This document shows positions 5,400 through 52,005 of a stretch of DNA of 64,000 nucleotides, piece after piece. Below the pieces are notes generated by a model that was given only the letters and a program-made list of their open reading frames with translations, was not told the origin of the DNA and searched no databases. This DNA is from Eledone cirrhosa (lineage: Eukaryota), in contig CAXHJY010000001.1 of the NCBI GenBank assembly GCA_964016885.1, positions 682,001-746,000 of the forward strand, written 5' to 3'. The position numbers and the translations under genes were made by a program. Position 1 is the first letter of the stretch. Each line of letters starts with the position of its first letter.

Positions 5400-6281
5400 T
5401 TTATCTAATTGTGTTGCATTAAGTAATCTTTATAAGAGAAAGATGTACCACAGACATCACAGTGATATAGTTCCTCTCCTGTATATGTTAGTGTCTAATT
5501 AAACCACAACATTTAGAGAAGGATTTATCACAGACATCAGTGATATGGTTCCTCTCCTGTATGTATATGTTAGTGTCTAGTGAAACCACAACATTTAGAG
5601 AAGGATTTATCACAGACATCAGTGATATGGTTCATCTCCTGTATATGTTGGTGTCTAGTGAAACCACAACATTTAGAGAAGGATTTATCACAGACATCAC
5701 AGTGATATCGTTCCTCTCCTGTATGTATATGTTGGTGTCTAGTGAAACCACATTTACAGAAGGATTTATCACAGACATCACAGTGATATGGTTCCTCTCC
5801 TGTAGATGTTAGTGTCTAGTGAAGCCACAACATTTAGAGAATGATGTACCAAATATATCAAAGTGATATGGCTTCCCAGCTGTATGTATATGTGTGTGTG
5901 TAGTTAATGTAACATTCAAAGAGAATGCTTTCCCTAAGATGTTACAATGATATGTATTTGTATTCTCATTAATTCACAAATTTGAGAGAATGATTTATCA
6001 CTGATATCAATGCATTATGATTTCTCTTCTGCATGTATACATTTGTGAGTAGTTAGGCTACTTTTCCCAGAGAATGATTTACCACAGATATCACAGTGAT
6101 ATGGCTTATCACCTGTATGTATACGTTTGTGAGTAGTTAAGGTACCTCTTTGAGAGAATGATATACCACAGATATCACAGTGATATGGCTTCTGTTCTCT
6201 AACCTTTGTCATCTCACCAGCAATACTAAACACTTTAGATTGTGTTTCACATTTAATCTTCTTTGTCAATTTATTTGGCAT
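5400..6281 (-). pseudogene. C2H2 zinc-finger gene, decayed (two good fingers followed by ~8 stop/frameshifted fingers)
   Basis: ORF 6015-6281 contains [41 protein letters not shown]; downstream ~78-84-bp finger units carry stops and indels. Confidence 0.85.
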
Positions 6282-10526: not shown

Positions 10527-10874
10527 TCTTAATGAGCACTATATTGACACAGTTGGAATAATGCAATTCGCTTGATTTGATATTCAACACCGAAGAATGT
10601 AAAACACGTCAAATAATCGACGAAAAACAAAACATAGAGCAAAAGTCCAGGAAATATATATATATATATAACAGATTAATCTACCGGAGTAAACGGTAGT
10701 GTCGAATCCGTATAGAGAACTCAATGTAATCCAAATGTGGAAAAATCATAAAAAATACATGTAGTTAATTAATAATGTAAAACAATTGGAAGACAGAGTC
10801 AAAATAAGACATTGAAAAACAATGAAAAATTAAACAAAGAACATGTTCTTCCTATTAATATTGATTTACACTTT

Positions 10875-11719: not shown

Positions 11720-12347
11720 TTTATCCGAAATATTATATTCTTTAAATAAACAAGAAATTGGTCTTAACTTCTAGTCTTATTAGAGATTAAGGGTTTTCTT
11801 TAAGTTGTTGTAGTTAAGGATTCGTAATTACATGTGTAATAAGTTATGTGTTTAGAATTATAGCCTAGGGGGCCCACCTAGACCGAGAGGAAAGCCGGGG
11901 GGGGGGGGGGGTCGCCCCCCCCCCCCCCCCGCTAGCTACGCTAGAGCGTCTAACCCATGCAAGAATGGAAAAATGGACGCTAAATGGTGATGATATATAC
12001 ATACATATATATATATCTCACCCACACTGGACGTGTAGAAGACAGCAAAAAAGCATCCAGCCCACACTTGCCTCTAAATGGGACCCGTCTAACCCATGCT
12101 AGTGTGGAAGATGGACGTTAATTGAAGATGATGATGATGATATATAATTAAATGTTGTAGTTTGTTTGAAGCATTCTATATAAAATATAACGTTGAAAGA
12201 GATAGAAGGCTAAACAATGCAAAATGGACAATAAGATGAGGTAAGGAAAAGTAAAAGTTACCTGGTAATCTTTGTTTTGTTTTTTTGTTGTTGTTCTTTT
12301 ATCTGTCCAATATTTCGGGACCTAAAAGTCCTTACTTCAGGGTTTAA

Positions 12348-12725
12348 CCCTTTAACATTTACATTACTCTATATATACTATTATATTTCCATGGTAATGT
12401 CTTTATCTCACATAACATTTACATTACTCTATATATACTATTATATTGCCATGGTAATGTCTTTATCTCACATAACATTTACATTACTCTATATATACTA
12501 TTATATTTCCATGGTAATGTCTTTATCTCACATAACATTTACATTACTCTATATATACTATTATATTTCCATGGTAAAGTCTTTACCTCACATAATATCG
12601 AATCTGATATTATTTATATTGAGAACAATACTTTAACATCAGTATGAGTGGCCAGTTACGGGTGGTTTAAAAAGAAAAAGAGGACAGAACTCTGGCCAGT
12701 TATTGCCGGTTTAAATGTTAAAGGG
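12348..12725 (+). mobile_element. piggyBac-like MITE with four internal 60-bp tandem units
   Basis: TTAA|CCCTTTAACATTTA ... TAAATGTTAAAGGG|TTAA; exact 60-bp periodicity over ~12352-12595. Confidence 0.85.
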
Positions 12726-12729
12726 TTAA

Positions 12730-12936
12730 CCCTTTAGCATTCACATTATTTTATATATACTATTATATTTTCATGGTAAAGGCTTTATCTCACATAATAT
12801 TGAATCTATCAGATTTTGAAAGTATTTATTTTGAGAACAATACCTTAACATCAGTCTGAGCGACCAGTTACAGCCAGTTTCAACAAAAAGAGGTAGAGAA
12901 TTCTGGCCGGTTTTGGCTGGTTTGGACACTAAAGGG
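12730..12936 (+). mobile_element. piggyBac-like MITE monomer (207 bp)
   Basis: Shares the TTAA at 12726-12729 with the previous copy; ends CACTAAAGGG|TTAA. Confidence 0.85.
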
Positions 12937-13037: not shown

Positions 13038-14077
13038 AATTGATGGAAGCTATGAAGTAGGAAGACCTGGGATGAGGTGATAAAAGGTGACCTGACACAA
13101 TTGATGGAAGCTATGAAGTAGGAAGACCTGGGATGAGGTGATAAAAGGTGACCTGACACAATTTATGGAAGCTATGAAGTAGGAAGACCTGGGATGAGGT
13201 GATAATAGCTGACCTCACACAATTGATGGAAGCTATAGAGTAGGAAGACCTAGGATGAGGTGATAAAAGGTGACCTGACACAATTGATGGAAGCTATGAA
13301 GTAGGAAGACCTGGGATGAGGTGATAAAAGGTGACCTGACACAATTGATGGAAGCTATGAAGTAGGAAGACCTGGGATGAGGTGATAAAAGCTGACCTCA
13401 CACAATTGATGGAAGCTATGGAGTAGGAAGACCTGGGATGAGGTGATAAAAGCTGATCTCACACAATTGATGGAAGCTATAGAGTAGGAAGACCTAGTCT
13501 GAGGTGATAAAAGCTGACTTCACACAATTGATGGAAGCTATGAAGTAGGAAGACCTGGGATGAGGTGAAAAAGCTGACCTGACACAATTGATGGAAGCTA
13601 TGAAGTAGGAAGACCTAGTTTGAGGTGATAAAAGCTGACCTCACACAATTGATGGAAGCTATGAAGTAGGAAGACCTGGGATGAGGTGATAAAAGCTGAC
13701 TTCACACAATTGATGGAAGCCATGAAGTAGGAAGACCTAGGATGAGGTGATAAAAGTTGAGCTCACACAATTGATGGAAGCTATAGAGTAGGAAGACCTA
13801 GGATGTGGTGATAACAGCTGACCTGACACAATTGATGGAAGCTATGAAGTAGGAAGACCTGGGATAAGGTGATAATAGCTAACCTGACACAATTGATGGA
13901 AGCTATAGAGTAGGAAGACCTGGGATGAGGTGATAAAAGCTGACCTGACACAATTGATGGAAGCTATGGAGTAGGAAGACCTGGGATGAGGTGATAAAAG
14001 CTGACTTCACACAATTGATGGAAGCTATAGAGTAGGAAGACCTGGGATGAGGTGATAAAAGCTGACCTCACACAATT
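13038..14077 (+). repeat. 59-bp minisatellite (~18 copies) derived from the RTE ORF 3' end
   Basis: Unit TTGATGGAAGCTATGAAGTAGGAAGACCTGGGATGAGGTGATAAAAGCTGACCTCACACAA; the last unit runs on into RTE sequence (CACTTCTCAAAGACAATGACACAGGATCG). Confidence 0.9.
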
Positions 14078-14207
14078 GCACTTCTCAAAGACAATGACAC
14101 AGGATCGAGATCTTTGGTGTTATACAGTAATATAGAAGACCAGCCATCCCTAGTATTGGTATCAATGACTCCCACATGGACATCAATACACATCTATATA
14201 TACAAAC

Positions 14208-28178: not shown

Positions 28179-28368
28179 GGGGCGGTGAATTGGCAGTATC
28201 GGTAGAGGGTCGGACGCCATGCTTTCCAGCATAGTTATGTCCCTTTACGGCCTGAGTTCAAATCCCGTCAAGGTTAACTTTGCCTTTCATCCTTAGCGGG
28301 TCGATAAAATAAAGTACCAGTAATGAACTGTGTAATTGCTGGCCTTGTGCCAAAAGTAGAAACAATTA
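28179..28368 (+). mobile_element. tRNA-derived SINE (family with ~12 copies in the window)
   Basis: GGCGGTGAATTGGCAGTATCGG...GAGTTCAAATCC...GCCTTTCATCCTT..GGGTCGATAAAATAAAGTACCAG; other copies at ~30470-31365, 33280-33440, 39570-39790, 46060-46440 and 48322-48717. Confidence 0.8.
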
Positions 28369-28403: not shown

Positions 28404-29725
28404 CTAGCTGGCCTTTCCGGCTGGTGCCTGGCTAAGTATACCGGCATTTTATCTTTTCAGGAAAGATACCGCATACCCTCTCAAGTAAGCGAGGGGTTGG
28501 GGGTTAATGTGCTCTGGTGTTGGGTTTCAATAGTTTTTAAGATTCCCCACTTCAGCAGCCAGTACGTTAAAGAAAATTGATAGTTACAACAATAAAGGCT
28601 GAACAGAGAACACATTTTTTAACAAACAATAATTTGTACAACCATAATGGAAATTCTAATTAACAGAAAATATTTAAATTACATTGTTAGAGCCTCAGAG
28701 TATAAAATATTTTTTGTTCAGCCCTCCGGAGCAAAGATTGTTTGGTAAGCTAACCCTAGAGCATCCTACATACAATTGACCATGGGAGAATCACTGATTT
28801 CGTAGCTCGTCTCGCAGAGAAGCTCTGTAGACGTTGACCTCTGGACACTCCTGTCAGGAGCAGGTAAGCTGTAGTGGCCTAGAGGCCGACCACCATTCTC
28901 CAGGACTCTGTTTTCAAGACAAATGAGCGCCTCATTGAAAACGACATTGTATGTTAGGTTTGGATTGTGTCTGCGTGTGCGGTGGAGGATATCCTCAGCT
29001 AGACTTTCGCAGTGGTTGTTCCACAGTGCGAGAGGGTCGGCGATATCGCAGTTGTGCAGCATAATAGCAAAAGGTTTTCGCAGCTGAGAAGGGACTTTAG
29101 CTATTTAGCAGGGTGAGGTGTCAATGGCTGTCATCATGTAACATACCACGCATCTGGCAAGCCTAACAGTAAGTGGAACATTGATGGCCATTGATGGTTC
29201 TCAGATCTTGGAAAGACTGTGGTCCTCTAACCTCGAACAGTAACAATGACGATAAGCCGTCTGTGCTTTCATGAAATAAATAGGTTTTTGTTTTTGTGTA
29301 TGCAAAAATATCTGTACACGAATATATATATTAAAATAACAGATTAAAGTTTAAGCAAAGAATCGCTGCTTTCACCCTTAACGGGATCTTCTGAAACTAA
29401 AAATATCAGTCTGTGAACGCAGAAGTAAATATTTCGAAAAACGTTATCTAATGCAGACAGCCAGACATACAGACTAAGAAAAAGAGGGGAATGTTGTGTG
29501 ACGTCATAAGAAAAGTGAGGAATGACGTATAACCGGAAGTGTTGATGTTTGAAATTTTAAAGAAGTGAATATTTAAATAATGTCTTTAATCATTCAGTAG
29601 ACAAAAATACCCTCACTTTTTTACTTGGAAAAAGTTACATCTATGGAGCAAATTTGGTGCTGTTTGGTCTAGCCGTTTGGCGGAAAGTTTGTACCTACAT
29701 ACGGCCATCAGCTTTATAGTATAGA
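28404..29725 (-). mobile_element. Internally deleted Helitron
   Basis: Minus strand 5' A|TCTATACTATA and 3' GC-rich subterminal segment then CTAG|T; RepHel remnants (VRGPQSFQDL; DPLALWNNHCESLAEDIL; KNILYSEAL). Confidence 0.82.
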
Positions 29726-30312: not shown

Positions 30313-30804
30313 GTCTGTTGATCTTTATTCATTCAAACTTTAGTTGTTAATCTCTACAAACTGTGACTGTTAACCCTTTAGCATTTAAAGCGACTGTATC
30401 TGGCCAGAATTCTCTCACCTCTTTCTGTTCAAACTGGCTGTAACCAGCCGTTCATATTAATGTTAAGATAATTGTTTCTACTTTGGGCACAAGGCCAGCA
30501 ATTACCCAGTGCATTACTCAGATCGTAAAGGGCCGTAACTCTATGCTGGAAAGCATGGCGTCCGACCCTCCACTGATACTGCCAACCCACCGCCCTTATT
30601 AATGTTAAGATAATGTTCTCAAAATAGATAATATCAAAATCTAATATATTCAATATTATGTTTCTACTTTTGGGGGCACAAGGCCAGCAATTACCCTAGT
30701 GTATTACTGGTACTTTATTTTATCGACCCCGTAAGGATGAATGGTAAAGTTATCCTCGACGGGATTTGAACTCAGACCATAATATTAGGTGAGATAATTA
30801 TGTG

Positions 30805-31365
30805 AGACTGGCAGTAATTGGTAGAGTGTCAGACATCATGTTTACGGCCCTTTATGTTCTGAGTTGAAATCCCGCCGAGGTTAACTTTGCCTTTCATCCT
30901 TACAGGGGTCGATAAAATAAAGTACCAGTAATGCACTGGGGGTAATTGCTGGATTGGACTGGCAGTAATCCGTAGAGCATCAGACACCATGTTTTGCAGC
31001 ATAGAATTATGGCCCTTTACGTTCTGAGTTCAAATCCTGCTGAAGTTAGCTTTGCCTTTCATTCTTACGGAGGTCGATAAAATAAAGTACCAGTAATGCA
31101 CTGGGGGTAATTGCTGGCTGGCCTTGTGCCAAAAGTAGAAACAATTATTATTATTGGATTGGCAGTAATCCGTAGAGTGTCAGACACCATGCTTTGCAGC
31201 ATAGAGTTATGGACCTTTACGTTCTGATTTCAAACCCGCCAAGGTTTGCCTTTCATTCTTATGGGGGGGTCAATAAAATAAAGTTCCAGTAATGCACTGA
31301 GGTAATTCAGCAATTACCCCTGTGTATTACTGGTACCTTGTGCCAAATAGTAGAAACAATTAACT
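30805..31365 (+). mobile_element. Three tandem tRNA-SINE copies
   Basis: Three head-to-tail copies of the 28179 family. Confidence 0.8.
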
Positions 31366-32541: not shown

Positions 32542-33721
32542 CAGAGGTTCTCAAAGTGGGTGCTACTGCCCCAAGAGGGGTGCTGGGGCTTAAGGATGGG
32601 GGTGGAGAGGATATAATAGTATATCAAATATCAAATGATAAATTTTATATATAAATATAGTAAAATAAAAAAAGTATATGATATTTATTGATACATAGTA
32701 TATATTATATAGTGGATAGAAATGAAGCAAGTATATGCTGTTGCATGTGTGATGTCAATGTGTGTGAACGACAAAGTATAGACGAGTTGAGAGAGAAACT
32801 GTGTATAAGAGGGATAAGTTGTAGTGTGTGGGAGAGAAGACTGTGTTGGTATGGACATGTGATGCGCATGGTGGATGACAGCTGGGTAAAGAACTGCCAA
32901 GAAATCACAGTAGAAGGAAGACACAGTAGAGGAAGATCACGAAAAACATGGGCAGAGGTAGTGAGAGCAGACCTCAGATCACTGAAGCTCATGGAGGAGA
33001 TGACAAGGAACCGTGACAAATGGAGAGATGCTGTGTTTAATAAGACCTGTCCCACCCTTACAAGCAGGGAAAAGCGGATGTAAAATGATGATAATGATGA
33101 TGATAGTGAAGGCTGAGTGATTAGAGAATCGGATTTGCAATCGTGAGGTTGTGAGGTTGTTCTTTCTACCTGGAGTTGCAACTGATAGATAGTATTAGCA
33201 ATTGGAAAGACCAATGGAAGCATTGATTCCGTGGTCCAATTTGATGGAAGTTGATCGACTGTCGATATATTATAGAAGGTAGGACACCATGCTTTGCAGC
33301 ATAGAGTTACGGCCCTTTATTATCTGACTTTAAATCCCTCCTAGGTTAATTTTGCCTTTCACCTTTACTGGGTCGATAAAATACAGTACCAGTAATACAC
33401 TGGAGTAATTGCTGGCCTTGTGCCAAAAGTAGAAAGAATTATTTATTATATATCAACCATTTTATGTATTATATATTATTTACTTTATTTCACGTTGCTC
33501 CTTCGACCTGGAGTTGCGACCGATAGATAGTATTAGCAATTGGAAAGACCAACGGAAACATTGTTTCCTCGGTCCGATTTGACGAAAGTCAATCGTTCCT
33601 TTTTTTTATATTATTTACAATTTGCTTGTAGGTAGGTCTCTCTGGAAATAGGTGTGGTGTTTTAGAGGGTATTACAAGGCCGTGTGGGGGGCGATGGCCC
33701 GAAAAAGTTTGAGAACCTCTG
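32542..33721. mobile_element. hAT (Charlie-like) MITE with nested RTE fragment and SINE
   Basis: Perfect 14-bp TIR CAGAGGTTCTCAAA; TSD CTCTAGAA/TTCTAGAA; RTE piece at ~32710-33105. Confidence 0.8.
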
Positions 33722-33958
33722 TTCTAGAATGTCACCATTTACTAAAGACATTTATTTATAATTGGCATGAAACACACATGTTCCTAATTGTTTAACTGTT
33801 TGGATACCAAACTGTCTGAATCAACTCTACCCCTTGAACTTGAACTGGCACTGTCGGTTACAACAATGAGTGTTCCAGTTGACACTATTGCTGGAACAGC
33901 CTGCTCATGAAATTAACGTGCAAGTGGCTGAGTATTCCACAGACATGCATACCCTTAA

Positions 33959-34179
33959 CCCTTTAGCATTTACATTACTCCATATCTAATATTACATTTT
34001 TGTGGTAAAGACTTTATCTTACATAATTATCTCACATAATATCAAATCTATGAGATTTTGATATTATATATTTTGAGAACAATACCTTCACATAAGTATG
34101 AGCAGCCTGTTATGGCTGGTTTGAACAGAAAGAAGTGAGAGAATTCTGGCCGGATATGGCCAGTTTAAATGCTAAAGGG
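33959..34179 (+). mobile_element. piggyBac-like MITE monomer inserted into a SINE
   Basis: TTAA|CCCTTTAGCATTTA...TAAATGCTAAAGGG|TTAA. Confidence 0.88.
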
Positions 34180-34471
34180 TTAACATAGCTCTCAGGGAGA
34201 TTCAGCATGACACAGAGTGTGACAAGGCTGACCCTTTGAATTACAGGTACAACTCATTTTTGCCAGCTGAGTGAACTGGAACAATATGAAATAAAGTGTC
34301 TTGCTCAAGGACACAACACTCCACTGGTAAACAAACTCATGACCTTACGATTGTGAGGCGAATACTCTAAACACAGAGCCACGCATCTTAGTTTATGATA
34401 AAATGTTTATAACTATCTTAAAACCTTCTATCCTAACTTTATGTAAGAACATTTGTTAAGTTATGTTTTAA

Positions 34472-37400
34472 CTCTTTAGCATTTACATTACTCTATATAT
34501 ACTATTGTATTTTCACAGTAAAGGCGTTACCTCACATAATATCTCACGTAACATTTACATTACTCTATATATACTATTGTATTTTCACAGTAAAGGCTTT
34601 ACCTCACATAATATCTCACGTAACATTTACATTACTCTATATATACTATTGTATTTTCACAGTAAAGGCTTTACCTCACATAATATCTCACATAGCTTTT
34701 ACATTACTCTATATATACTATTGTATTTTCACAGTAAAGGCTTTACCTCACATAATATCTCACATAACATTTACATTACTCTATATATACTATTGTATTT
34801 TCACAGTAAAGGCTTTACCTCACATAATATCTCACATAACATCTCGTATACGAGAGACGTGTGTTGACGTGTGTGAACAAGCTCGGCTACCGAGTTGGAT
34901 TTACTTACTCAAAAGTGAGTTTTGATTAATTTTTTTATACTGTAATATACGTTAACCCCTTGCCTTGGTCGTCAAACTTTGAGTTTATTTATTTTCGCCC
35001 CTTTTTGGGGCGAATTTTCCTTTTAAAAATTTATTACGGCAAACTGATAGAAATGGACGGAATTTTCACATCTCATCCTAACAAGAAAGCCACGCCCCCT
35101 AAGAAAGGTGATACAGAGAATCTAGAAGCACAAGGCTCTAAGTCTTCCCTCCTCACTTCTGATAAAGAAACATGGAACACGGAATTAAAAGAAAAATTTG
35201 TAAAAATGGGTGAAAACCCAGAAAGTCACATAAACGCAGACAAAAACAACAATGACAATAACAGCATGATCAACAACAGCAATAGTCACAACACCAACCA
35301 AGGAAAAAATAACGATAACACCAAACAAAGCGAACCCACTACTGGTGCCTCCTTTGCACAGGCGGTCCGGAAAACACAGACCTGCAAGCAACTGGACATT
35401 ACAACTCTGAGAGAAAAGATGAAGGAAGCAAAACAGTATGTAACTTTCAAAGAAGGAGGAGACTTCACAATCACCTCCCCACAAGAAATCAAAAGAGACA
35501 CGACACTAAGAACGATATCTTTCAGAACAATTTCCAACATAACAAGGAAACCAGCTCAATTATCCCAAAAGAAATTGAGCTGGTCCTAAAAAGTGTGTGG
35601 AGTGATATATCGTTCATACAAAAAGGGCCACTCTATGGGAATATAACGGTGCTAATGAAGGATCAATTGACGGCCAGGAAATACTCTGTGTCGCCAATTG
35701 TTTCCAAGCTACACACATTTTTCCCCACATATTTGTGGAAAAGAACGCAGAAAATAAGAGTCTCCGGAATCCGGCCAAATTAATGCATTTCCTGGGTACT
35801 AACAGGATTTTTAGAAGACGAGGACGGAATCCTTTCAGTAGGAGAAGTCACCACAGACGTTTTCTGCGGTTTGAGCGTGGAGGTTCTGGTCCAAATGAGA
35901 CCAGAACGAATAGCTAGAATACCACAGAGGGTGTCCCTCGATGGAGAAACATTTATATACATTTCAGCCCAGGGTAGGAGGCCCATATGTTACTACTGTT
36001 CAAGCAGGGGTCATCTAAGGGCTGCCTGCCCTCAATTGACAAAAAAAAGGCTCTTTTGCCTACACCCCACACACTACCACCGCCACCACCACCACTACCA
36101 CCACCACAACAACAACAAAAAACAACACGGAAAAATAACACAAGACACGGCCCCACCCAAAACAACTCCAAAAACACACACAAACACAACAAAACCCCAA
36201 AATACACCACTACCCGACAGCACGGACGAGGACCCAGCTGAAATAGCACCTAGTGACGAAGAGGGGGGGACCCTTCCAACCTGTAAAAAGGAAAAAAAGA
36301 AAGCACCACTCGAACATAAATGAAAGAAACACACAACCACCAACAAAAACAAAACAAACAGAACAAACAAGATCCGCCCCGCCCCAAAACATAACACATA
36401 CAACAAAACGCAAGCACACACAAGAACAACAAACAAACACAACACAAATAAAACAGTATACATACATTAACACAAATAACAGAGAACTAGTAAAAACAAT
36501 ACACAAAGACCCTTCGGTGGAAACTGAAGGGCAATTCTTTGCAAGCGCGGCCAACAAACCGCATTTAAAAATGATAAGACTCCCAATGGACACCTATGCA
36601 AAACTAAGAGAGAACTTTCCTGAGGACGTGGGGAAAACATGTACTCGACCCTATAACCGCGTCCTCTTGAAACGTTTCCCCACCCACACCTCACCAAACA
36701 CCCCCACCCCACCCCACCACAAAACAACACCCCACCAAACAATCCCTCCAATACGCCCATGGATATTGTGCAACCTGCTCCTCAGGAGCCGAACAGGTAG
36801 GTCCTTCCTCTTTTAACCAACATGGCTGATATAAGAGTTGGGTGTCTGAATGTACGCGGCCTGGGACTGTCTTGAAAACAAGGCAAACTTTTAAACGATC
36901 TCAGGTCGCATAGAATGGATGTAATGGCTATTTGCGAGTCCAGGATCAGCAGCGAGCGCCAACTGGCGCCCCTCTTCGACGACTTTGAGATCTTCGCATC
37001 TCTCTGTCAACCGGGGGGTGGGGGTGGAGTTGTCGTTCTGCTGCGAAAATACCTGAGCCTCACCATACAGAAGGTGCACCTGGACCCGGAGGGTCGACTG
37101 GTGGTTTTAGAAGTCGGCAGTAGTGAAAGTGGAGCCCTTAGACTAATTGCTGCGTACGCCCCTTTTTGGGCAGTGCGGCCGGAATACTTCCAACATCTGG
37201 AAACTTTTCTGGGAACGTCCAGCTCCTTGCTTTTAGTGGGGGACTGGAATGGTATCCTGGATGCACGTTGGGACTATGTAGGGGCATGTGCCAATACAGA
37301 GGGGTGTAAAAGCCTCAAACGGTTAATTGGCCGATTTGACCTGGCCGATAGACATCGACTAGATTTTCCGACTGTACCACTATGGACGTGGACCAATCGC

Positions 37401-39947
37401 AGCGGCTCTAGGTCGTACCTAGATAGGGTCCTAGTTAGAGAGAAGGATAGGGACACATTTAGCTGTCCAAAAATGTTCATGGTTGACTATTCGGATCACA
37501 AGTTAGTGACCTGCATAGCCAACCTTGATAGAACCCATAGACAGGGACCCGGTTACTGGAAGCTGAACTTGTCCTTACCGACAAGCAAAGCTTACAGTAA
37601 ATGGATTAGCACGTTAGTTAAGCAGAGTTTGACAGGGGCAATTGTCAACAACAGGTGGTGGATCTCTCTTAAGAGAGCAATTAGAATAGAATCGATAGGT
37701 TTTAGTCAGGAATTAGCAAGGGATAGGAACAAGACGGAAAAGGAATTAGTAGATAGAGTAGATGAGGCGATTAGGAGTGGCAATGTAGCCAGCGTGCTGG
37801 CATCAAGAATGGCCTTAGACCAGTTCTTTGAGGTGAAGCATGAAGGCTGCGTTGTCAGGAGTAAAATACGTGCTCTGGGTAATGAGGGAGCCAAAGCTGT
37901 TAGCTGGGCCCGAGTGACAGAGGCAAAAAGTGGTAACAAGTCCACGATTCGGTCTTTGAAGGACCAGGATGGGCGTGTGATCCTTGAACCTGGGCAGATG
38001 TGTGCGGCCTTTCAGTGGCACTTTGCATGACTGTTCGAGAGGGGCGGCGCGCCGGGTGAGACTATGGATTTCAATCCATACCTCGACGGTCTGCCGCGCC
38101 TCTCGGATGCGGAGGCGAAGTCCTGCGAAAGGCCGATTTCAGCTGCTGAGATAGGGGCGGCGCTGAGCCAAAGCGGCAAACGCAAATCCCCGGGTGTCGA
38201 TGGTCTACCTTACGAGCTATATGTAGCGATGCCGGACTTGTTCTCTGATATCCTCGAAGCGATCTACTGCAACTGGCACATTGAATGTGCCCAGGCGCTC
38301 ACGGCCCTCTGGAAAGCGGACCCGGCAATCAGTGGAGACTCCACCTCGACATTCTATAGAGGGTTGGTACGCAGCAGGTGCGACGATGCTCTCGGAGAAG
38401 CTCTAGGCATGGAGGAAGATGAACTGGCCAGTCTGTTCGGTAGGACGTTTGGCCCTGGACCGATGGACAACATCCAAAAGTCCCTGGCTTGGCAGTGCTA
38501 CCGAGCGGCTCTACCCGTTCGAGACAAGCTCCAGGCATGGGAGCTTGGGTAGGGATCCTTTGAATAAGATCTGTCCGAGATGCGTGCATGATGACGAAAT
38601 GGTTGCGCACGCATTCGTACACTGCCCAGGCATTGCTGACCTGTGGGGCTATGTGGAACGACTACTGTCGAAGGTGGGACCAATCCGGTTGACCACCGAG
38701 TCCATTGTCACAATCAAACCGCCTCCCGTTCAAAAACGAAGGAGAGGCGGTTTTTCTCTGTGTGATAGCCATGGCTAAAGAAGTTGTATGGTGGACGAGG
38801 CTGAAAGGGCTGAGGTCAGACACCTATCTCTCCAGCCAACAACTGGTCCCCTTTTTCAAATACCATATTAAAAGAAGGATCAGAATGGAGAGAGAGGTGC
38901 TCTACCCCAGCAAGTTTTATGAAAGGTGGGTGAAAGTAGGGAGAATGGCCAGAGTGAATGGGTCTTCTCTCTATATCAGCCTGTAGGTGAAAGAAGAGGA
39001 AAAAGAGGAGACGAGGGAATCACCTACTCTTTGTGCTCCTGAGGAGAAGGGTTGCACATTTTTCCGGGGTGTATGCGACCCATGTTAATGCCCCCTCCCT
39101 ATTGAGGACTTCGTTTGTTGTTGTTATTTCATTGTTATATTTTTGTACTCGTTAATTATATGTAAACATCCCCCCTTGTATCTGTCCCTACCTTTTGTGC
39201 CCTAGTGGCAAATAAAGACACCACTCTATATATACTATTGTATGTTCACAGTAAAGGCTTTACCTCACATAATATCTCACATAACATTTACATTACTCTA
39301 TATATACTATTGTATTGTCACAGTAAAGGCTTTACCTCACATAATACCTCACATAACATTTACATTACTCTATATATACTATTGTATTGTCACAGTAAAG
39401 GCTTTACCTCACATAATATCTCACATAACATTTACATTACTCTATATATACTATTGTATTGTCACAGTAAAGGCTTTACCTCACATAATACCTCACATAA
39501 CATTTACATTACTCTATATATACTATTGTATTTACACAGTAAAGGCTTTACCTCACATAATATCTCACATAATGGTTTTTTATATAGGCACAAGGCCAGC
39601 AATTTTGGGGTAGGCGAACGTCGATTAAATCGACCCTAGTGAGTGACTGGTACATTATTTTATCAACCCCATAAGGATGAAAGGCAAAGTTAACCTCGGC
39701 GGGATTGAACTAAAATCATAAAGGGCCGTAACTCTATGCGGCAAAGCATGGCGTCCGACCCTCTACCGATACTGCCAAACCACCGCCCTCATAATTATTT
39801 CACATAATATCGAATCTATGAGATTTTGATGTTATTTATTTTGAGAACAATACCTTAATATAAGTATGAGTGTCCAGTTACAGCCAGTTTGAATAGAAAG
39901 AGTTGAGAAAATTCTGGCCGAATACAACCGGTTTAAATGCTAAAGGG
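34472..39947 (+). mobile_element. piggyBac-like MITE with internal 72-bp array, interrupted by a Tx1 LINE and a SINE
   Basis: TTAA|CTCTTTAGCATTTA at the left and TAAATGCTAAAGGG|TTAA at the right; about five repeat units on each side of the LINE. Confidence 0.85.
34843..39222 (+). mobile_element. Tx1/L1-clade non-LTR retrotransposon with both ends present and RT core deleted
   Basis: ORF1 remnants with a CCHC knuckle (CYYCSSRGHLRAAC); ORF2 from 36822 (CLNVRGL, VGDWN, SYLDRVL, SDHKLV, GPGYWKLN, KSPGVDGLPYE) jumps to a C-terminal CPRC..HAFVHC finger; ends AATAAAGA. Confidence 0.88.
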
Positions 39948-40194
39948 TTAATTCTAAATTTGGCACAATTTTTTATGATGAATTTTTTACGAGTAAGAGG
40001 CCTCATAACATAACTAGCACAGGGCTTCATGTGCCCTAAATCTTGCACTCGTCCAAGCCCATGTTTGCCAATCAGTTTTTGACTAAACTTTACCCAAATC
40101 TCCCTCCTCCTCACCACCATCCCCACTACCAACACCACCAAATACCATTGCTAATTGTTTTTTGTTTTAACTTTCTTACCATGTTTTTCTGCAG

Positions 40195-40760: not shown

Positions 40761-41908
40761 AAGCCCGCGGTAGTAGAGCATGGCTATTTTATAAAGAGCA
40801 AGAGCTCAGCCAGCAGGTCCTTTCTCTTTATAATATACCTTTAACATATATACATATATATTAGGGTGTTTCATATTTATAGGGAAACAGGTTTTAGTTG
40901 AAATCATCTCATGTCGATTATGCTCTGAATTCATTTGACATAAAAACTACAAAAACACAAACACGAGGAGATACAAAAATATTTAGGAGTTGCACAGTTT
41001 GGTGCATTGCCTAGTGGTAAGGGTGTTGGACTTAGAATCATAATGTCATGGGTTCGATTCCTGAGCTGGGTTACATGTTGTGTTCTTGAGCAAAACACTT
41101 CACTTCACATTGCTCCAGTATACTCAGCTGAAAATGAGTACCAGTAATAGCTGGAGGTTTAACCCTGTGATGGACTGGTGTCCTGTCCAGCGAGGTTGTT
41201 GTTGTTACAGCTCACACATATGCAGGTTTAACTGGCCTCCTCCAAGGTATATCTCGTTGGAGGTGTCTAGGGTAATTTAATGATACGGACCCCAGTCCTA
41301 TCATTTCATTTCTACAGCTGAGTAAACTGGAGCAATGTGAAATAAAGTGTCTTGCTCAAGGAAACAACACATCACCTGGTCCGAGAATTGAACTCACAAC
41401 CTTTCGATTGCAAACCCAATGCTCTAACCACTAAGACATGTGCCTTCACAGCAAGGTGTCTTGTACTTCAAGTTGCTTCATGCCATGAAACCGAGATAAG
41501 CATTGGCCTAACAAGCCTTCTGGTTTAAGACAGACGTTTTTAGACAGTGTGATGCTTTTCCAATGCCATGCCAAAAAAAAAAAAATGAATAAGATTTTAC
41601 TTGTTGATTATAACCAGTTTGAATTTTTGTGCATTTTCATCCATTTTCATCTATGTTCTTGCAGGAGACAATTCTAAATGAAAAAGAAATGAACCGTAAA
41701 CTTAAAGTGGAATAAGGGCAGTTTCAGGTGGTTTGGAATGTAACTTAACAAAGGTTCTTACATGAAATTAGATGGAAGATTTTTAGATAATATAAAGGCT
41801 TTGGAATAAACAATTTTGTAGCATAGAACCTGGGGCAGTTCAGGTGGTTTGGAATATAACTTAACAAAGGTTCTTAGATGAAATTATAATGGAATGTAAA
41901 CAGTTTAA

Positions 41909-44900
41909 CCCTTTAGCATTTAAACTGGCCATATCCGGCCAGAATTCTCTAACCTCTGTTCAAATCAGCTGCAACTGGCCACTCATACTGATGTTAAGTT
42001 TTTCTTCTCAAAATAAATAATATTAAAATCTTGTAGATTCAATATTATGTGAGATAATTATGTGAGGTAAAGCCTTTACCATGAAAATACAATAGTAAAT
42101 ACAGAGTAATGTAAATGTTATGTGAGATAATTATGTGAGGTAAAGCCTTTACCATGAAAATGCAATAGTAAATACAGAGTAAGGTAAATGTTATGTGAGA
42201 TAATTATGTGAGGTAAAGCCTTTACCATGAAAATACAATAGTAAATAGAGAGTAATGTAAATGTTATGTGAGGTATTATGTGAGGTAAAGCCTTTACCAT
42301 GAAAATACAATAGTAAATACAGAGTAATGTAAATGTTATGTGAGATATTATGTGAGGTAAAGCCTTTACCATGAAAATACAATAGTAAATACAGGGTAAT
42401 GTAAATGTTATGTGAGATAATTATGTGAGGTAAAGCCTTTACCATGAAAATACAATAGTAAATACAGAGTAATGTAAATGTTATGAGATATTATGTGAGG
42501 TAAAGCCTTTACCATGAAAATACAATAGTAAATACAGGGTAATGTAAATGTTATGTGAGATAATTATGTGAGGTAAAGCCTTTACCATGAAAATACAATA
42601 GTAAATACAGGGTAATGTAAATGTTATGTGAGATAATTATGTGAGGTAAAGCCTTTACCATGAAAATACAATAGTAAATACAGAGTAATGTAAATGTTAT
42701 GAGATAATTATGTGAGGTAAAGCCTTTAACATGAAAATACAATAGTAAATACAGAGTAATGTAAATGTTATGTGAGATAAAGCCTTTACCATGAAAATAC
42801 AATAGTAAATACAGAGTAATGTAAATGTTATGTGAGATAATTATGTGAGGTAAAGCCTTTACCATGAAAATACAATAGTAAATACAGGCTAATGTAAATA
42901 TTATGTGAGATATTATGTGAGGTAAAGCCTTTACCATGAAAATACAATAGTAAATACAGGGTAATGTAAATGTTATGTGAGATATTATGTGAGGTAAAGC
43001 CTTTACCATGAAAATACAATAGTAAATACAGAGTAATGTAAATGTTATGTGAGATAATTATGTGAGGTAAAGCCTTTACCATGAAAATACAATAGTAAAT
43101 ACAGGGTAATGTAAATGTTATGTGAGATAATTATGTGAGGTAAAGCCTTTACCATGAAAATACAATAGTAAATACAGAGTAATGTAAATGTTATGTGAGA
43201 TATTATGTGAGGTAAAGCCTTTACCATGAAAATACAATAGTAAATACAGGGTAATGTAAATATTATGTGAGGTAAAGCCTTTACCATGAAAATACAATAG
43301 TAAATACAGGGTAATGTAAATGTTATGTGAGGTAAAGCCTTTACCATGAAAATACAATAGTAAATACAGAGTAATGTAAATGTTATGTGAGATATTATGT
43401 GAGGTAAAGCCTTTACCATGAAAATACAATAGTAAATACAGGGTAATGTAAATGTTATGTGAGATAATTATGTGAGGTAAAGCCTTTACCATGAAAATAC
43501 AATAGTAAATACAGGGTAATGTAAATGTTATGTGAGATATTATGTGAGGTAAAGCCTTTACCATGAAAATACAATAGTAAATACAGAGTAATGTAAATGT
43601 TATGTGAGATAATTATGTGAGGTAAAGCCTTTACCATGAAAATACAATAGTAAATACAGGGTAATGTAAATGTTATGTGAGATAATTATGTGAGGTAAAG
43701 CCTTTACCATGAAAATACAATAGTAAATACAGAGTAATGTAAATGTTATGTGAGATAATTATGTGAGGTAAAGCCTTTACCATGAAAATACAATAGTAAA
43801 TACAGAGTAATGTAAATGTTATGTGAGATAATTATGTGAGGTAAAGCCTTTACCATGAAAATACAATAGTAAATACAGAGTAATGTAAATGTTATGAGAT
43901 AATTATGTGAGGTAAAGCCTTTACCATGAAAATACAATAGTAAATACAGAGTAATGTAAATGTTATGTGAGATAATTATGTGAGGTAAAGCCTTTACCAT
44001 GAAAATACAATAGTAAATACAGGGTAATGTAAATGTTATGAGATAATTATGTGAGGTAAAGCCTTTACCATGAAAATACAATAGTAAATACAGAGTAATG
44101 TAAATGCTATGTGAGATAATTATGTGAGGTAAAGCCTTTACCATGAAAATACAATAGTAAATACAGAGTAATGTAAATGTTATGAGATAACTATGTGAGG
44201 TAAAGCCTTTACCATGAAAATAAAATAGTAAATACAGAGTAATGTAAATGTTATGTGAGATAATTACCATGAAAATACAATAGTAAATACAGGGTAATGT
44301 AAATGTTATGAGATAATTATGTGAGGTAAAGCCTTTACCATGAAAATACAATAGTAAATACAGGGTAATGTAAATGTTATGTGAGATAATTATGTGAGGT
44401 AAAGCCTTTACCATGAAAATACAATAGTAAATACAGAGTAATGTAAATGTTATGAGATAATTATGTGAGGTAAAGCCTTTACCATGAAAATACAATAGTA
44501 AATACAGGGTAATGTAAATGTTATGTGAGATAATTATGTGAGGTAAAGCCTTTACCATGAAAATACAATAGTAAATACAGAGTAATGTAAATGTTATGTG
44601 AGATAAAGCCTTTACCATGAAAATACAATAGTAAATACAGGGTAATGTAAATGTTATGTGAGATAATTATGTGAGGTAAAGCCTTTACCATGAAAATACA
44701 ATAGTAAATACAGAGTAATGTAAATGTTATGAGATAATTATGTGAGGTAAAGCCTTTACCATGAAAATACAATAGTAAATACAGGGTAATGTAAATGTTA
44801 TGTGAGATAATTATGTGAGGTAAAGCCTTTACCATGAAAATACAATAGTAAATACAGGGTAATGTAAATGTTATGTGAGATAATTATGTGAGGTAAAGCC

Positions 44901-46021
44901 TTTACCATGAAAATACAATAGTAAATACAGAGTAATGTAAATGTTATGTGAGATAATTATGTGAGGTAAAGCCTTTACCATGAAAATACAATAGTAAATA
45001 CAGGGTAATGTAAATGTTATGAGATAATTATGTGAGGTAAAGCCTTTACCATGAAAATACAATAGTAAATACAGGGTAATGTAAATGTTATGTGAGATAA
45101 TTATGTGAGGTAAAGCCTTTACCATGAAAATACAATAGTAAATACAGAGTAATGTAAATGTTATGAGATAATTATGTGAGGTAAAGCCTTTACCATGAAA
45201 ATACAATAGTAAATACAGGGTAATGTAAATGTTATGTGAGATAATTATGTGAGGTAAAGCCTTTACCATGAAAATACAATAGTAAATACAGAGTAATGTA
45301 AATGTTATGAGATAATTATGTGAGGTAAAGCCTTTACCATGAAAATACAATAGTAAATACAGGGTAATGTAAATGTTATGTGAGATAATTATGTGAGGTA
45401 AAGCCTTTACCATGAAAATACAATAGTAAATACAGGGTAATGTAAATGTTATGTGAGATAATTATGTGAGGTAAAGCCTTTACCATGAAAATACAATAGT
45501 AAATACAGAGTAATGTAAATGTTATGAGATAATTATGTGAGGTAAAGCCTTTACCATGAAAATACAATAGTAAATACAGAGTAATGTAAATGTTATGTGA
45601 GGTAAAGCCTTTACCATGAAAATACAATAGTAAATACAGGGTAATGTAAATGTTATGAGATAATTATGTGAGGTAAAGCCTTTACCATGAAAATACAATA
45701 GTAAATACAGGGTAATGTAAATGTTATGTGAGATAATTATGTGAGGTAAAGCCTTTACCATGAAAATACAATAGTAAATACAGAGTAATGTAAATGTTAT
45801 GAGATAATTATGTGAGGTAAAGCCTTTACCATGAAAATACAATAGTAAATACAGGGTAATGTAAATGTTATGTGAGATAATTATGTGAGGTAAAGCCTTT
45901 ACCATTAAAATACAATAGTAAATGCAGAGTAATGTAAATGCTACGTGAGATAATTATGTGAGGTAAAGCCTTTACCATGAAAATACAATAGTAAATACAG
46001 GGTAATGTAAATGCTAAAGGG
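41909..46021 (-). mobile_element. piggyBac-like MITE expanded by a ~4-kb internal satellite (~55 units of 60-73 bp)
   Basis: TTAA|CCCTTTAGCATTTA ... TAAATGCTAAAGGG|TTAA enclosing an array at ~42045-46010. Confidence 0.92.
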
Positions 46022-46476
46022 TTAAAATAAACAGCATTGTCAAAGTGCAGATTGAAATAATTGTTTCTACTGTTGGCACAAGGCCAGCAATTTGAAGGGA
46101 AGGGGGAAAGTCGATTTAAATGACCCCAGTGTGTGACTGGTACTTTTTTTTATCGACCCCGTAAGGATGAAAGGCCAAGCTAACTTTGGCGGGTTTTGAA
46201 CTCAGAATGGAAAGGGTCGTAACTCAATACCGCAAAGCATGGTGTTCGACACTCTAACGATACTGCCAATCCACCGCCCTTGATTAAAATAATGGTTCCT
46301 TATATAGGCACAAGACCCCGTAAGGATGAAAAGCAAAGTTACCCTCTGCGGGATTGGAACTCAGATCATAAAGGGCCATAACTTTATGCCGCAAAGCATG
46401 GTGTTCGATGCTCCACCGATTCTGCCAATCCACTGCCCTAGATTGAAATAATGACTAAGATTGTTTGTCTTTCTAG

Positions 46477-48222: not shown

Positions 48223-48794
48223 CCGTATTTCCCGGCGTCAAAGACGCTACTTTTACTAAAATAAGTCTCAAAAATCTACCATGCATCCTGGAGGCCGAAA
48301 GTTGTTTATTATTTTTCTTCAAAGGGCAGTGAATTGGCAGTATCGGTAGAGGGTCGGACGCCATGCTTTGACGCATAGAGTTACAGCACTTGCCATTCTG
48401 AGTTCAAATCCCGCCAAGGTTAACATTGCCTTTCATCCTTACGGAGTCGATAAAATAAAGTACCAGTAATGTACTGGGTGATTGCTGGCCTTGTGCCAAT
48501 AGTAGAAACAATTATTTTTCTTCAAATTCAAAGAGCAGTGGATTGGCAGTATCGGTCTGACGCCATGCTTTGCAGCAAAGAGTTACGTCCCTTTATGGTC
48601 TGAGTTCAAATCCCGCCGAGGTTAACTTTGCCATTCATCCTTACGGGGTCGATAAAATAAAGTACCAGTAATACACTGGGATAATTACTGGCCTTGTGCC
48701 AAAAGTAGAAACAATTATTTTTTTTCAAATTTTTGGTTGTCAGAATTAGGGTGTGTCCTCGAGGACGAAGTGTCTTCGGCGTCAGGAAATACAG
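48223..48794. mobile_element. Tigger/pogo-like MITE with two nested SINEs
   Basis: Imperfect TIRs CCGTATTTCCCGGCGTCAAAGACGC / GTGTCTTCGGCGTCAGGAAATACAG; related piece at ~6945-7045. Confidence 0.6.
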
Positions 48795-48989: not shown

Positions 48990-51900
48990 AGGGAAGGGAC
49001 AGGGACCATGATAGTATTTAGGGACTCACTGATTGGTGGAAGAGAAGAGACAGGGACCACGACAGTATTTAGGGACTCACTGATTGGTGGAAGAGAAGAG
49101 ACAGGGACCACAACAGTATTAAGGGACTCACTGATTGGTGGAAGAGAAGAGACAGGGACCACGACAGTATTAAGGGACTCACTGATTGGTGGAAAAGAAG
49201 AGACAGGGACCATGATAGTATTTAGGGACTCACTGATTGGTGGAAGAGAAGAGACAGGGACCACAACAGTATTAAGGGACTCACTGATTGGTGGAAGAGA
49301 AGAGACAGGGAACTCAACAGTATTTAGGGACTCACTGATTGGTGGAAGAGAAGAGACAGGGACCACAACAGTATTAAGGGACTCACTGATTGGTGGAAGA
49401 GAAGAGACAGGGACCACAACAGTATTAAGGGACTCACTGATTGGTGGAAGAGAAGTGACAGGGACCACGACAGTATTTAGGGACTCACTGATTGGTGGAA
49501 GAGAAGAGACAGGGACCATGACAGTATTAAGGGACTCAATGATTGGTGGAAGAGACGAGACAGGGACCACAACAGTATTTAGGGACTCACTGATTGGTGT
49601 AAGAGAAGAGACAGGGACCACGACAGTATTAAGAGACTCACTGATTGGTGGAAGAGAAGAGACAGGGACCACAACAGTATTAAGGGACTCACTGATTGGT
49701 GGAAGAGAAGAGACAGGGACCACAACAGTATTTAGGGACTCACTGATTGGTGGAAGAGAAGAGACAGGGACCACAACAGTATTAAGGGACTCACTGATTG
49801 GTGGAAGAGAAGAGACAGGGACCACAACAGTGTTTAGGGACTCACTGATTGGTGTAAGAGAAGAGACAGGGACCACGACAGTATTAAGAGACTCACTGAT
49901 TGGTGGAAGATAGAGACAGGGACCACGACAGTATTAAGGGACTCACTGATTGGTGGAAGAGAAGAGACAGGGACCACAACAGTATTTAGGGACTCACTGA
50001 TTGGTGGAAGAGAAGAGACAGGGACAACGACAGTATTAAGGGACTCACTGATTGGTGGAAGAGAAGAGACAGGGACAATGATAGTATTTAGGGACTCACT
50101 GATTGGTGGAAGAGAAGAGACAGGGACCACAACAGTATTAAGAGACTCACTGATTGGTGGAAGAGAAGAGACAGGGACAACGACAGTATTAAGGGACTCA
50201 CTGATTGGTGGAAGAGAAGAGACAGGGACAATGATAGTATTTAGGGACTCACTGATTGGTGGAAGAGAAGAGACAGGGACCACAACAGTATTTAGGGACT
50301 CACTGATTGGTGGAAGAGAAGAGACAGGGACCACAACAGTATTAAGAGACTCACTGATTGGTGGAAGAGAAGAGACAGGGACCACGACAGTATTAAGGGA
50401 CTCACTGATTGGTGGAAGAGAAGAGACAGGAACCACAACAGTATTTAGGGACTCACTGATTGGTGGAAGAGAAGAGACAGGGACCACAACAGTATTTAGG
50501 GACTCACTGATTGGTGGAAGAGAAGAGACAGGGACCACGACAGTATTAAGGGACTCACTGATTGGTGGAAGAGAAGAGACAGGGACCACAACAGTATTTA
50601 GGGACTCACTGATTGGTGGAAGAGAAGAGACAGGGACCACAACAGTATTTAGGGACTCACTGATTGGTGGAAGATAGAGACAGGGACCACAACAGTATTA
50701 AGGGACTCACTGATTGGTGGAAGAGAAGAGACAGGGACCACAACAGTATTTAGGGACTCACTGATTGGTGGAAGATAGAGACAGGGACCACGACAGTATT
50801 AAGAGACTCACTGATTGGTGGAAGAGAAGCGACAGGGGCCACAACAATATTTAGGGACTCACTGATTGGTGGAAGATAGAGACAGGGACCACGACAGTAT
50901 TAAGGGACTCACTGATTGGTGGAAGAGAAGAGACAGGGACCACAACAGTATTAAGGGACTCACTGATTGGTGGAAGAGAAGAGACAGGGACCACGACAAT
51001 ATTAAGGGACTCACTGATTGGTGGAAGAGAAGAGACAGGGACCACAACAGTATTAAGGGACTCACTGATTGGTGGAAGAGAAGAGACAGGGACCACGACA
51101 GTATTAAGGGACTCACTGATTGGTGGAAGAGAAGAGACAGGGACCATGACAGTATTAAGGGACTCACTGATTGGTGGAAGAGAAGAGACAGGGACCACAA
51201 CAGTATTAAGGGACTCACTGATTGGTGGAAGAGAAGAGACAGGGACCATGATAGTATTTAGGGACTCACTGATTGGTGGAAGAGAAGAGACAGGGACCAC
51301 AACAGTATTAAGGGACTCACTGATTAGTGGAAGAGAAGAGACAGGGACCACAACAGTATTTAGGACTCACTGATTGGTGGAAGAAGAAAGACAGGGACCA
51401 CAACATATTAAGGACTCACTGATTGTGGAAGAGAAGAGACAGGGACCACAACAGTATTAAGGGACTCACTGATTGGTTGAAGAAAAGAGACAGGGACCAC
51501 GCAGTATTAAGGACTCACTGATTGAGTCTGATCTCTCCTGATTCGAAGAGACAACACTTTCACAACAGTATTAAGGACTCACTGATTGGTGGAAGAGAAG
51601 AGACAGGGACCATGATAGTATTTAGGGACTCACTGATTGGTGGAAGAGAAGAGACAGGGACCACAACAGTATTAAGGACTCACTGATTGGTGAAGAGAAG
51701 CGAAGGGACCTGAACATCACCATATTATTACCTCTCTTTCATTCATGACAACATTTCCACATCAATTATGACTCACTGATTGTAAGAGAAGAGACAGGGA
51801 CCACAACAGTATTAGACTCACTGATTGGTGAAGAGAAGAGACACATGGGACCACAACAGTATTAAGGGACCTCACTGATTGTGAAGAAGACAAGAACAGG

Positions 51901-52005
51901 AACCAACGAAGCAGTATTAAGGACTCACTGATTGGTGAAGAAGAGACAGGACCAGACACGACAGTATTAAGGGACTCACTGATTGTGAAGAAAAGAACAG
52001 GGACC
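48990..52005. repeat. 51-bp minisatellite (~55-59 copies)
   Basis: Unit GAGACAGGGACCACAACAGTATTAAGGGACTCACTGATTGGTGGAAGAGAA; becomes indel-rich after ~51360. Confidence 0.95.

Follow-up and report, generated by a model that had tools for sequence, protein, structure and literature searches.

Tx1L of Xenopus laevis sits in the internal tandem repeats of the element Tx1D, occurs mostly as full-length copies without a poly(A) tail and has a 23-bp target-site duplication (TSD). Elements of the Tx1 clade have a separate open reading frame 1 (ORF1) with a zinc knuckle. Tx1L is a Tx1 long interspersed nuclear element (LINE) with an endonuclease of the apurinic/apyrimidinic (APE) type, found at a specific sequence in Tx1D, which is a non-autonomous piggyBac (PMC4494074; PMC1950540); its endonuclease, Tx1L-EN, was shown to nick its own target site (PMC1950540). 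Tx1 is one of three groups with target-specific families (PMC4640811). The subject of this report is a Tx1-like LINE of the cephalopod Eledone cirrhosa that interrupts a miniature inverted-repeat transposable element (MITE) of the piggyBac type at positions 34472-39947 of the window, a stretch of 64,000 nucleotides of contig CAXHJY010000001.1 (positions 682,001 to 746,000). The LINE is site-specific for the 72-bp repeat unit of this MITE, and its RNA probably carries a short leader derived from the target.

Tx1 families preferring non-autonomous DNA transposons (Mariner-N4_AMi, Harbinger) are also known from crocodilians (Tx1-Mar, Tx1-9_AMi), for which hitchhiking was rejected via truncated copies (Kojima, 2015; PMC4494074); the same paper proposed transcription from the flanking target for SINEU. 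R2 RNAs are cleaved up to 36 nt upstream of the element in 28S sequence, the annealing of which was postulated to lead to uniform 5′ junctions, and R2 of a springtail has a fixed 7-bp deletion (Eickbush et al., 2013; PMC3774820). From Octopus vulgaris recently active L1-Tx1 and piggyBac families have been counted (PMC13282606); the main text of that paper has no match for "satellite" or "nested". We found no report of the present LINE family in cephalopods in the literature, which was searched outside Repbase and Dfam, where it may have been curated before. The arrangement of a LINE in a DNA transposon is thus already known; the new part is the proposed annealing of a leader.

The site specificity, base-exact and in fixed orientation, is well supported. 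The exact 15-nt unit start follows directly after 229 of the 258 exact genomic copies of the LINE 3′ end (26 nt); chance is excluded because exact target junctions occur in the background only about 7 times per million strand positions. All 110 distinct 3′ junctions that were sampled lie at unit position 1 and start with ACTCT (107 stay unit-like over 36 nt, three enter other sequence after 9-22 nt), and all 117 full-length 5′ junctions lie after unit position 65 (114 exactly, 3 as single-change variants). The junctions sampled came from the top BLAST hits and from the pattern matches listed first, and lean to young copies and to contigs C1-C20. A first-pass annotation, made from the one insertion in the window, had suggested that a satellite-bearing MITE serves a LINE as landing pad in an invertebrate and that the flanks of the other copies be tabulated; tabulation bears the suggestion out, the flanks falling on unit positions 1 and 65 rather than being random. 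A preference for a target sequence, as is common in the Tx1 clade, is therefore also a trait of this LINE.

The host, judged by its termini, is a non-autonomous piggyBac MITE, since these match at both ends the termini of an autonomous piggyBac in the same genome (2.57 kb, with an open 561-codon transposase frame, PF13843), from which the 72-bp unit is absent. It has TTAA TSDs, terminal inverted repeats (TIRs) of the form CCC...GGG, no coding capacity and a high copy number: genome-wide, its left end is matched exactly at 10,630 places, which makes at least 10,600 copies, and the empty junction between two units at 29,127. In its TTAA duplication and in the CCC TIRs shared with the autonomous element it resembles other non-autonomous piggyBac MITEs with internal tandem repeats. 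The number of 72-bp units per MITE varies from 1, as in the copy at 33955-34183 (229 bp, perfect TIRs), to at least 56. A reverse-oriented copy of the MITE family at 41905-46025 contains no LINE; its unit is a 73-bp variant that starts with ACTCTGTATTT and is repeated about 56 times. As 109 of 110 sampled insertions start with ACTCTAT, such a unit may be poorly suited as a target. A further family copy at about 12345-12730 has four 60-bp units and is followed by a second copy with one TTAA in common, and at L221 (contig C1:34023794-34026570) a single-unit MITE carries at its end an inserted copy of the autonomous piggyBac to whose family it belongs.

The LINE family has at least 260 copies, the exact counts of its 3′ end (258) and of its 5′ end (27 nt; 266) being lower bounds. 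When two mismatches were allowed the 3′ pattern gave 800 matches, in which related families are probably included. Since exact 5′ ends are as numerous as exact 3′ ends (266 vs. 258), the family inserts mostly full-length. It is young: pairwise, copies differ by a median of 1.35%, and the closest pairs by 0.02-0.1%, the two members being found in separate arrays and on separate contigs. Both ORFs are open in 12 of the 51 copies having both ends. In the intact copy L143, ORF2 matches PF03372 (APE), PF00078 (reverse transcriptase, RT) and PF13966 (C-terminal zinc), all above the cut-off; the match of ORF1 to zf-CCHC is weak (16.8 bits for a cut-off of 20.8). Over the RT region ORF2 reaches 67% with its best named relative, which comes from Argonauta hians. 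In phmmer ORF2 scored 297-328 bits against five vertebrate proteins named TX1 or YTX2, names that are automatic labels, compared with 184 bits against human L1 ORF2. An RT tree of 18 rows, made with neither an L1 outgroup nor an authentic Tx1L sequence, places the LINE on a branch of invertebrate sequences that is separate from the vertebrate TX1-named proteins, with which its ORF2 is 30-32% identical. The LINE is Tx1-like, and its membership of the Tx1 clade is likely from these comparisons.

Head-to-tail clusters of five or six LINEs, separated by as little as one unit, were seen at C1:4.22-4.26 Mb and C10:40.72-40.75 Mb. Among the matches listed, the LINEs on the largest contigs (C1 and C2) are confined to the terminal ~30 Mb on either side; MITE left ends, unlike the listed LINEs, extend into the interior of C1.

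At the 5′ junction of the LINE in the window the seven target bases TTACATT are gone and there is no TSD, which had at first been held to weaken the case for specificity. The argument turns round when other copies are considered: the same 7 bp are lost in 117 of 117 full-length copies, with no sign of a long duplication, and a loss so uniform points to a mechanism. Eight of ten truncated copies (L123, L128, L130, L131, L132, L135, L238 and L240) have kept TTACATT and have TSDs of 1-16 bp, some of these lengths being blurred by microhomology; left out of the ten were L133, which on its 5′ side runs into another repeat, and the copies that have lost internal parts. A TSD of 65 bp or 36 bp hidden in the tandem array and masked as a 7-bp loss was also considered and rejected, the unit adjacent on the left being no copy of that adjacent on the right: over positions 1-36 the two are identical in 6 of 26 loci, ordinary neighbours in 7-10 of 26.

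That the 25-29 nt directly in front of the LINE are those of the element rather than of the host array is evident from sites at which 60% or more of the nearby units share a variant peculiar to that array. In a first set, from which two duplicate loci were dropped, the unit adjoining the 5′ end of the LINE was of the host type at 16 of 19 such sites within positions 1-36 and at 0 of 10 within positions 37-65, compared with 12 of 16 in control units; in a fresh set of 17 copies the corresponding numbers were 8 of 11, 0 of 3 and, in the controls, 8 of 9. For the overwritten part the pooled result is 0 of 13 against 20 of 25 in the controls (p = 7e-6). Over 99 junctions the variability of the 5′-adjoining unit falls between positions 36 and 41. 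Genome-wide, a perfect 25-nt leader precedes 232 of 266 LINE 5′ ends, compared with 16,948 of 29,127 empty junctions (58%). None of the 117 full-length copies occupies the first-unit site behind the TIR, where there is no upstream unit, and such sites make up 27% of the exact sites; the truncated copy L128 does occupy one. A hairpin is predicted from the leader and the first 36 nt of the LINE (z = −3.46 with the leader, −1.39 without), which is suggestive only, and among the eight phases of the unit the true leader folds best (−19.2 kcal/mol vs. −9.3 to −15.8 kcal/mol), a weak control made on one sequence. As in R2, uniform 5′ junctions are thus combined with element-type target sequence upstream. 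Because the last 25-29 nt before the LINE are element-type and not host-type, we consider it likely that the LINE RNA carries a target-derived leader and that its complementary DNA (cDNA) anneals to the preceding unit.

The best overall explanation, which we likewise hold to be probable, is a site-specific, nick-primed Tx1-like LINE with leader-guided joining of the 5′ end. The predicted endonuclease would nick the bottom strand at ACATT^ACTCTAT and so prime reverse transcription; the top strand would be cut a few bases downstream, which would give the 1-16-bp TSDs of the truncated copies. The LINE RNA would begin 25-29 nt upstream of the element, inside the repeat unit, and in full-length events the copy of the leader in the cDNA would pair with the preceding unit. 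The unpaired end of the top strand, including TTACATT, would then be trimmed and second-strand synthesis would begin there, by which host variants would be overwritten. The LINE would spread alone, and the MITE, which is abundant, would give it a landing pad where insertion does no harm. A candidate for setting the 5′ end of the RNA is a TATA-like run that lies some 30 nt before it in the same unit.

Several observations weigh against leader-guided joining. The overwriting is seen at only 13 informative sites, several of them from the same locus, and the position of the RNA 5′ end is deduced from genomic copies. Imperfect leaders precede 13 of 117 copies, and L048 and L250 match only the last 13-16 nt. 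Two truncated-looking copies do not behave like the other eight, L126 having a junction of the full-length type and L235 being joined via a microhomology of about 40 nt. A ribozyme at the 5′ end was searched for in 34700-35200, where Rfam gave no match with E values up to 5. Finally, the sister LINEs L174 and L175 have adjacent units in common on both sides, which suggests recombination or a longer transduction.

The uniform junction could also have arisen with no carried leader, if the endonuclease recognised the upstream 25-29 bp, and hence chose canonical units alone, and made its top-strand cut 7 bp upstream, so that the target site was truly truncated. This would account for the constant 7-bp loss, for the conservation of positions 41-65 and for the absence of full-length copies from first-unit sites, and the 7-bp loss in the truncated-looking L126 would be expected. 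We nevertheless regard such a cut as unlikely, since the same enzyme made the truncated copies, 8 of 10 of which have kept the 7 bp and gained short TSDs, since the upstream unit is variant or absent in L128, L131, L132, L135, L238 and L240, and since arrays in which 60-100% of the nearby units are variant still have the base of the element in the adjacent unit (13 of 13). Even less probable is that the 5′ junction and the 25-29 bases next to it became uniform only after insertion, through gene conversion or recombination between LINE copies. Tandem clusters of LINE copies do exist, and L174 and L175, which are 1.1% apart and lie in different host elements 160 kb from each other, have common adjacent units on both sides; but the boundary between unit positions 36 and 41 is sharp and one-sided, and the unit adjoining the 3′ end of the LINE is host-type from about position 9 on.

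It had also been proposed that the MITE carries the LINE as a composite; the specificity would then be only apparent, one or a few LINE insertions having been spread in their MITEs by the piggyBac transposase. The autonomous piggyBac with its matching termini and open frame would be a source of transposase, and many hosts retain TIRs and TTAA on both sides. Against this, LINEs 0.05-0.3% apart sit in arms only 52-85% identical, with unrelated flanks and 1-30 units per side, and independently truncated copies join the same base. The search for composites at distinct TTAA sites, which the first-pass annotation had called for, gave none: among 465 pairs, from just 31 loci with a readable right arm, in which host-arm identity was compared with LINE distance, there was no pair with the same arms and different flanks. 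The one pair with more than 91% right-arm identity also has a common outer flank and is a segmental duplicate. The same is true of the relatives of the window copy on C16, C20 and C27, in which the flanks beyond the TTAAs are common and which are therefore segmental duplicates of the LINE-in-MITE together with its outer flanks; the left TIR of the window copy is, moreover, mutated at its second base. With near-identical LINEs in unrelated arrays, composite movement is rejected as the main route and is the least probable of the explanations considered. L174 and L175 (contig C17) were looked at separately as a candidate for a composite jump, which was rejected: one or two adjacent units are common on both sides, and the arms and outer units differ, which fits recombination or transduction.

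The present LINE may be compared with the described systems as follows. With Tx1L/Tx1D of X. laevis (the Tx1c composite) it has in common that a Tx1-like LINE with an APE-type endonuclease lies at a specific site in a non-autonomous piggyBac. The target lies in a different host element, however, and instead of a fixed TSD, here replaced in all full-length copies by the 7-bp loss, there is an overwritten leader. The crocodilian Tx1 families are old (85-91% to consensus) and have a preference only, whereas the Eledone LINE is young, has intact copies and is base-exact. To R2 it is similar in its probable target-derived 5′ sequence, its uniform 5′ junctions and, for the springtail element, its loss of 7 bp; R2 differs in having a restriction-like endonuclease, a target in 28S ribosomal DNA and a 5′ end formed by a ribozyme like that of hepatitis delta virus, whereas the present LINE has an APE domain, two ORFs, a transposon repeat as target and no ribozyme match.

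A Tx1-like LINE in a piggyBac MITE is thus found a second time, apparently independently, and here in an invertebrate; its intact, near-identical copies make the system open to testing. How LINEs complete their 5′ junction is poorly understood; here the polymorphisms of the host array record which strand won, and they offer natural evidence for homology-guided priming of the second strand in an APE-type element.

Two related elements (L137:1-1309 and L171:1-130) have 3′ ends that are followed by a (TCTA)n/(TA)n microsatellite; one (TCTA)n-ending relative is 85% identical over ORF2 residues 806-1152. They are possibly sister families with another target. Because the unit start ACTCTATATA resembles the (TCTA)n/(TA)n found at these ends, a recent target switch from a (TCTA)n microsatellite to the 72-bp unit is plausible from the two ends seen; the endonuclease is where such a switch could be mapped. 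No match came from searching the genome with the 3′ end of one sister element, and both sister ends were met by chance in loci sampled for the main LINE.

It is tempting to join these points, although we think the combination doubtful as a whole: the 72-bp unit might be promoter, landing site and 5′ primer of the LINE at once, and the LINE an obligate hyperparasite that switched its target from a (TCTA)n microsatellite. The TATA-like run (unit positions 5-12) would then start transcription about 30 nt further on, at positions 37-41, where the leader starts; the first 36 nt of the LINE would have evolved to pair with the leader; and a copy would have to lie in the correct register of an array of several units to be both expressed and sealed full-length.

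In the window the element is composed of the following parts. The leader was placed from host-type and element-type bases across copies, the genome-wide counts and the predicted hairpin with the first 36 nt of the LINE.

34468..34471, no strand: left TTAA target duplication of the MITE
34472..34485, plus strand: left TIR of the MITE, a non-autonomous piggyBac; matches one end of the autonomous piggyBac of the genome
34490..34842, plus strand: left array, four 72-bp units and one 65-bp unit adjoining the LINE
34818..34842 (start possibly 34814), plus strand: target-identical leader (unit positions 41-65), likely carried by the element and likely its true 5′ end
34843..39222, plus strand: LINE body, 4380 bp (complete copies 5.6 kb)
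35053..36800, plus strand: ORF1 remnant, frameshifted and with an internal stop (~580 aa in intact copies)
36822..38986, plus strand: ORF2 remnant, which keeps the APE endonuclease and the C-terminal zinc domain (1145 aa in intact copies)
39223..39572, plus strand: right array, 4.9 units, beginning with unit position 1 at the inferred bottom-strand nick site
39573..39790, plus strand: secondary insertion of an unrelated dispersed repeat, ~220 bp, with 10 further matches in the window
39790..39933, plus strand: right arm of the MITE, unique sequence with 86% identity to the single-unit copy at 33955-34183
39934..39947, minus strand: right TIR of the MITE
39948..39951, no strand: right TTAA target duplication of the MITE

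The coordinates first assigned to the LINE, the split unit, the approximately 7 missing bp and both TTAAs were correct; the left TIR, described as kept, is imperfect, as it begins with CTC instead of the CCC of the family (one substitution). No meaning attaches to the "diagnostic bases" by which the units left and right of the LINE had been distinguished: TTGTCACAG is present in only 3 of the 5 right units, which is ordinary array variation, and in 26 loci units across the LINE differ from each other by a mean of 1.5 over 36 nt, same-side neighbours by 1.27.

The LINE body has AATAAA at 39211-39216 and no poly(A) tail. Both ORFs contain frameshifts and stops, and in ORF2 a deletion of about 1.24 kb at 38269-38278, which occurred at a short microhomology, has removed residues ~495-913 and with them the whole RT domain. 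The window copy is dead; it is an RT-deleted segmental duplicate, the nearest relatives of which are those on C20 (4.1-5.3 Mb) and C27. On C20 and C16 the duplicates are ~131-135 kb apart, and different parts of the LINE have been lost from each copy.

Two ORFs that flank the element gave no Pfam match. The dispersed repeat at 39573-39790, which had no Rfam match at the gathering threshold, sits here inside the last MITE unit; it is abundant, about 200 bp long and sometimes tandem, with relatives in the window at 28180-28321, 30516-31298, 33273-33401, 46075-46439 and 48323-48680. Other tandem arrays of the window lie at 5435-5904 (~6 × 80 bp), 13038-14078 (17 × 61 bp) and 48993-52005 (59 × 51 bp).

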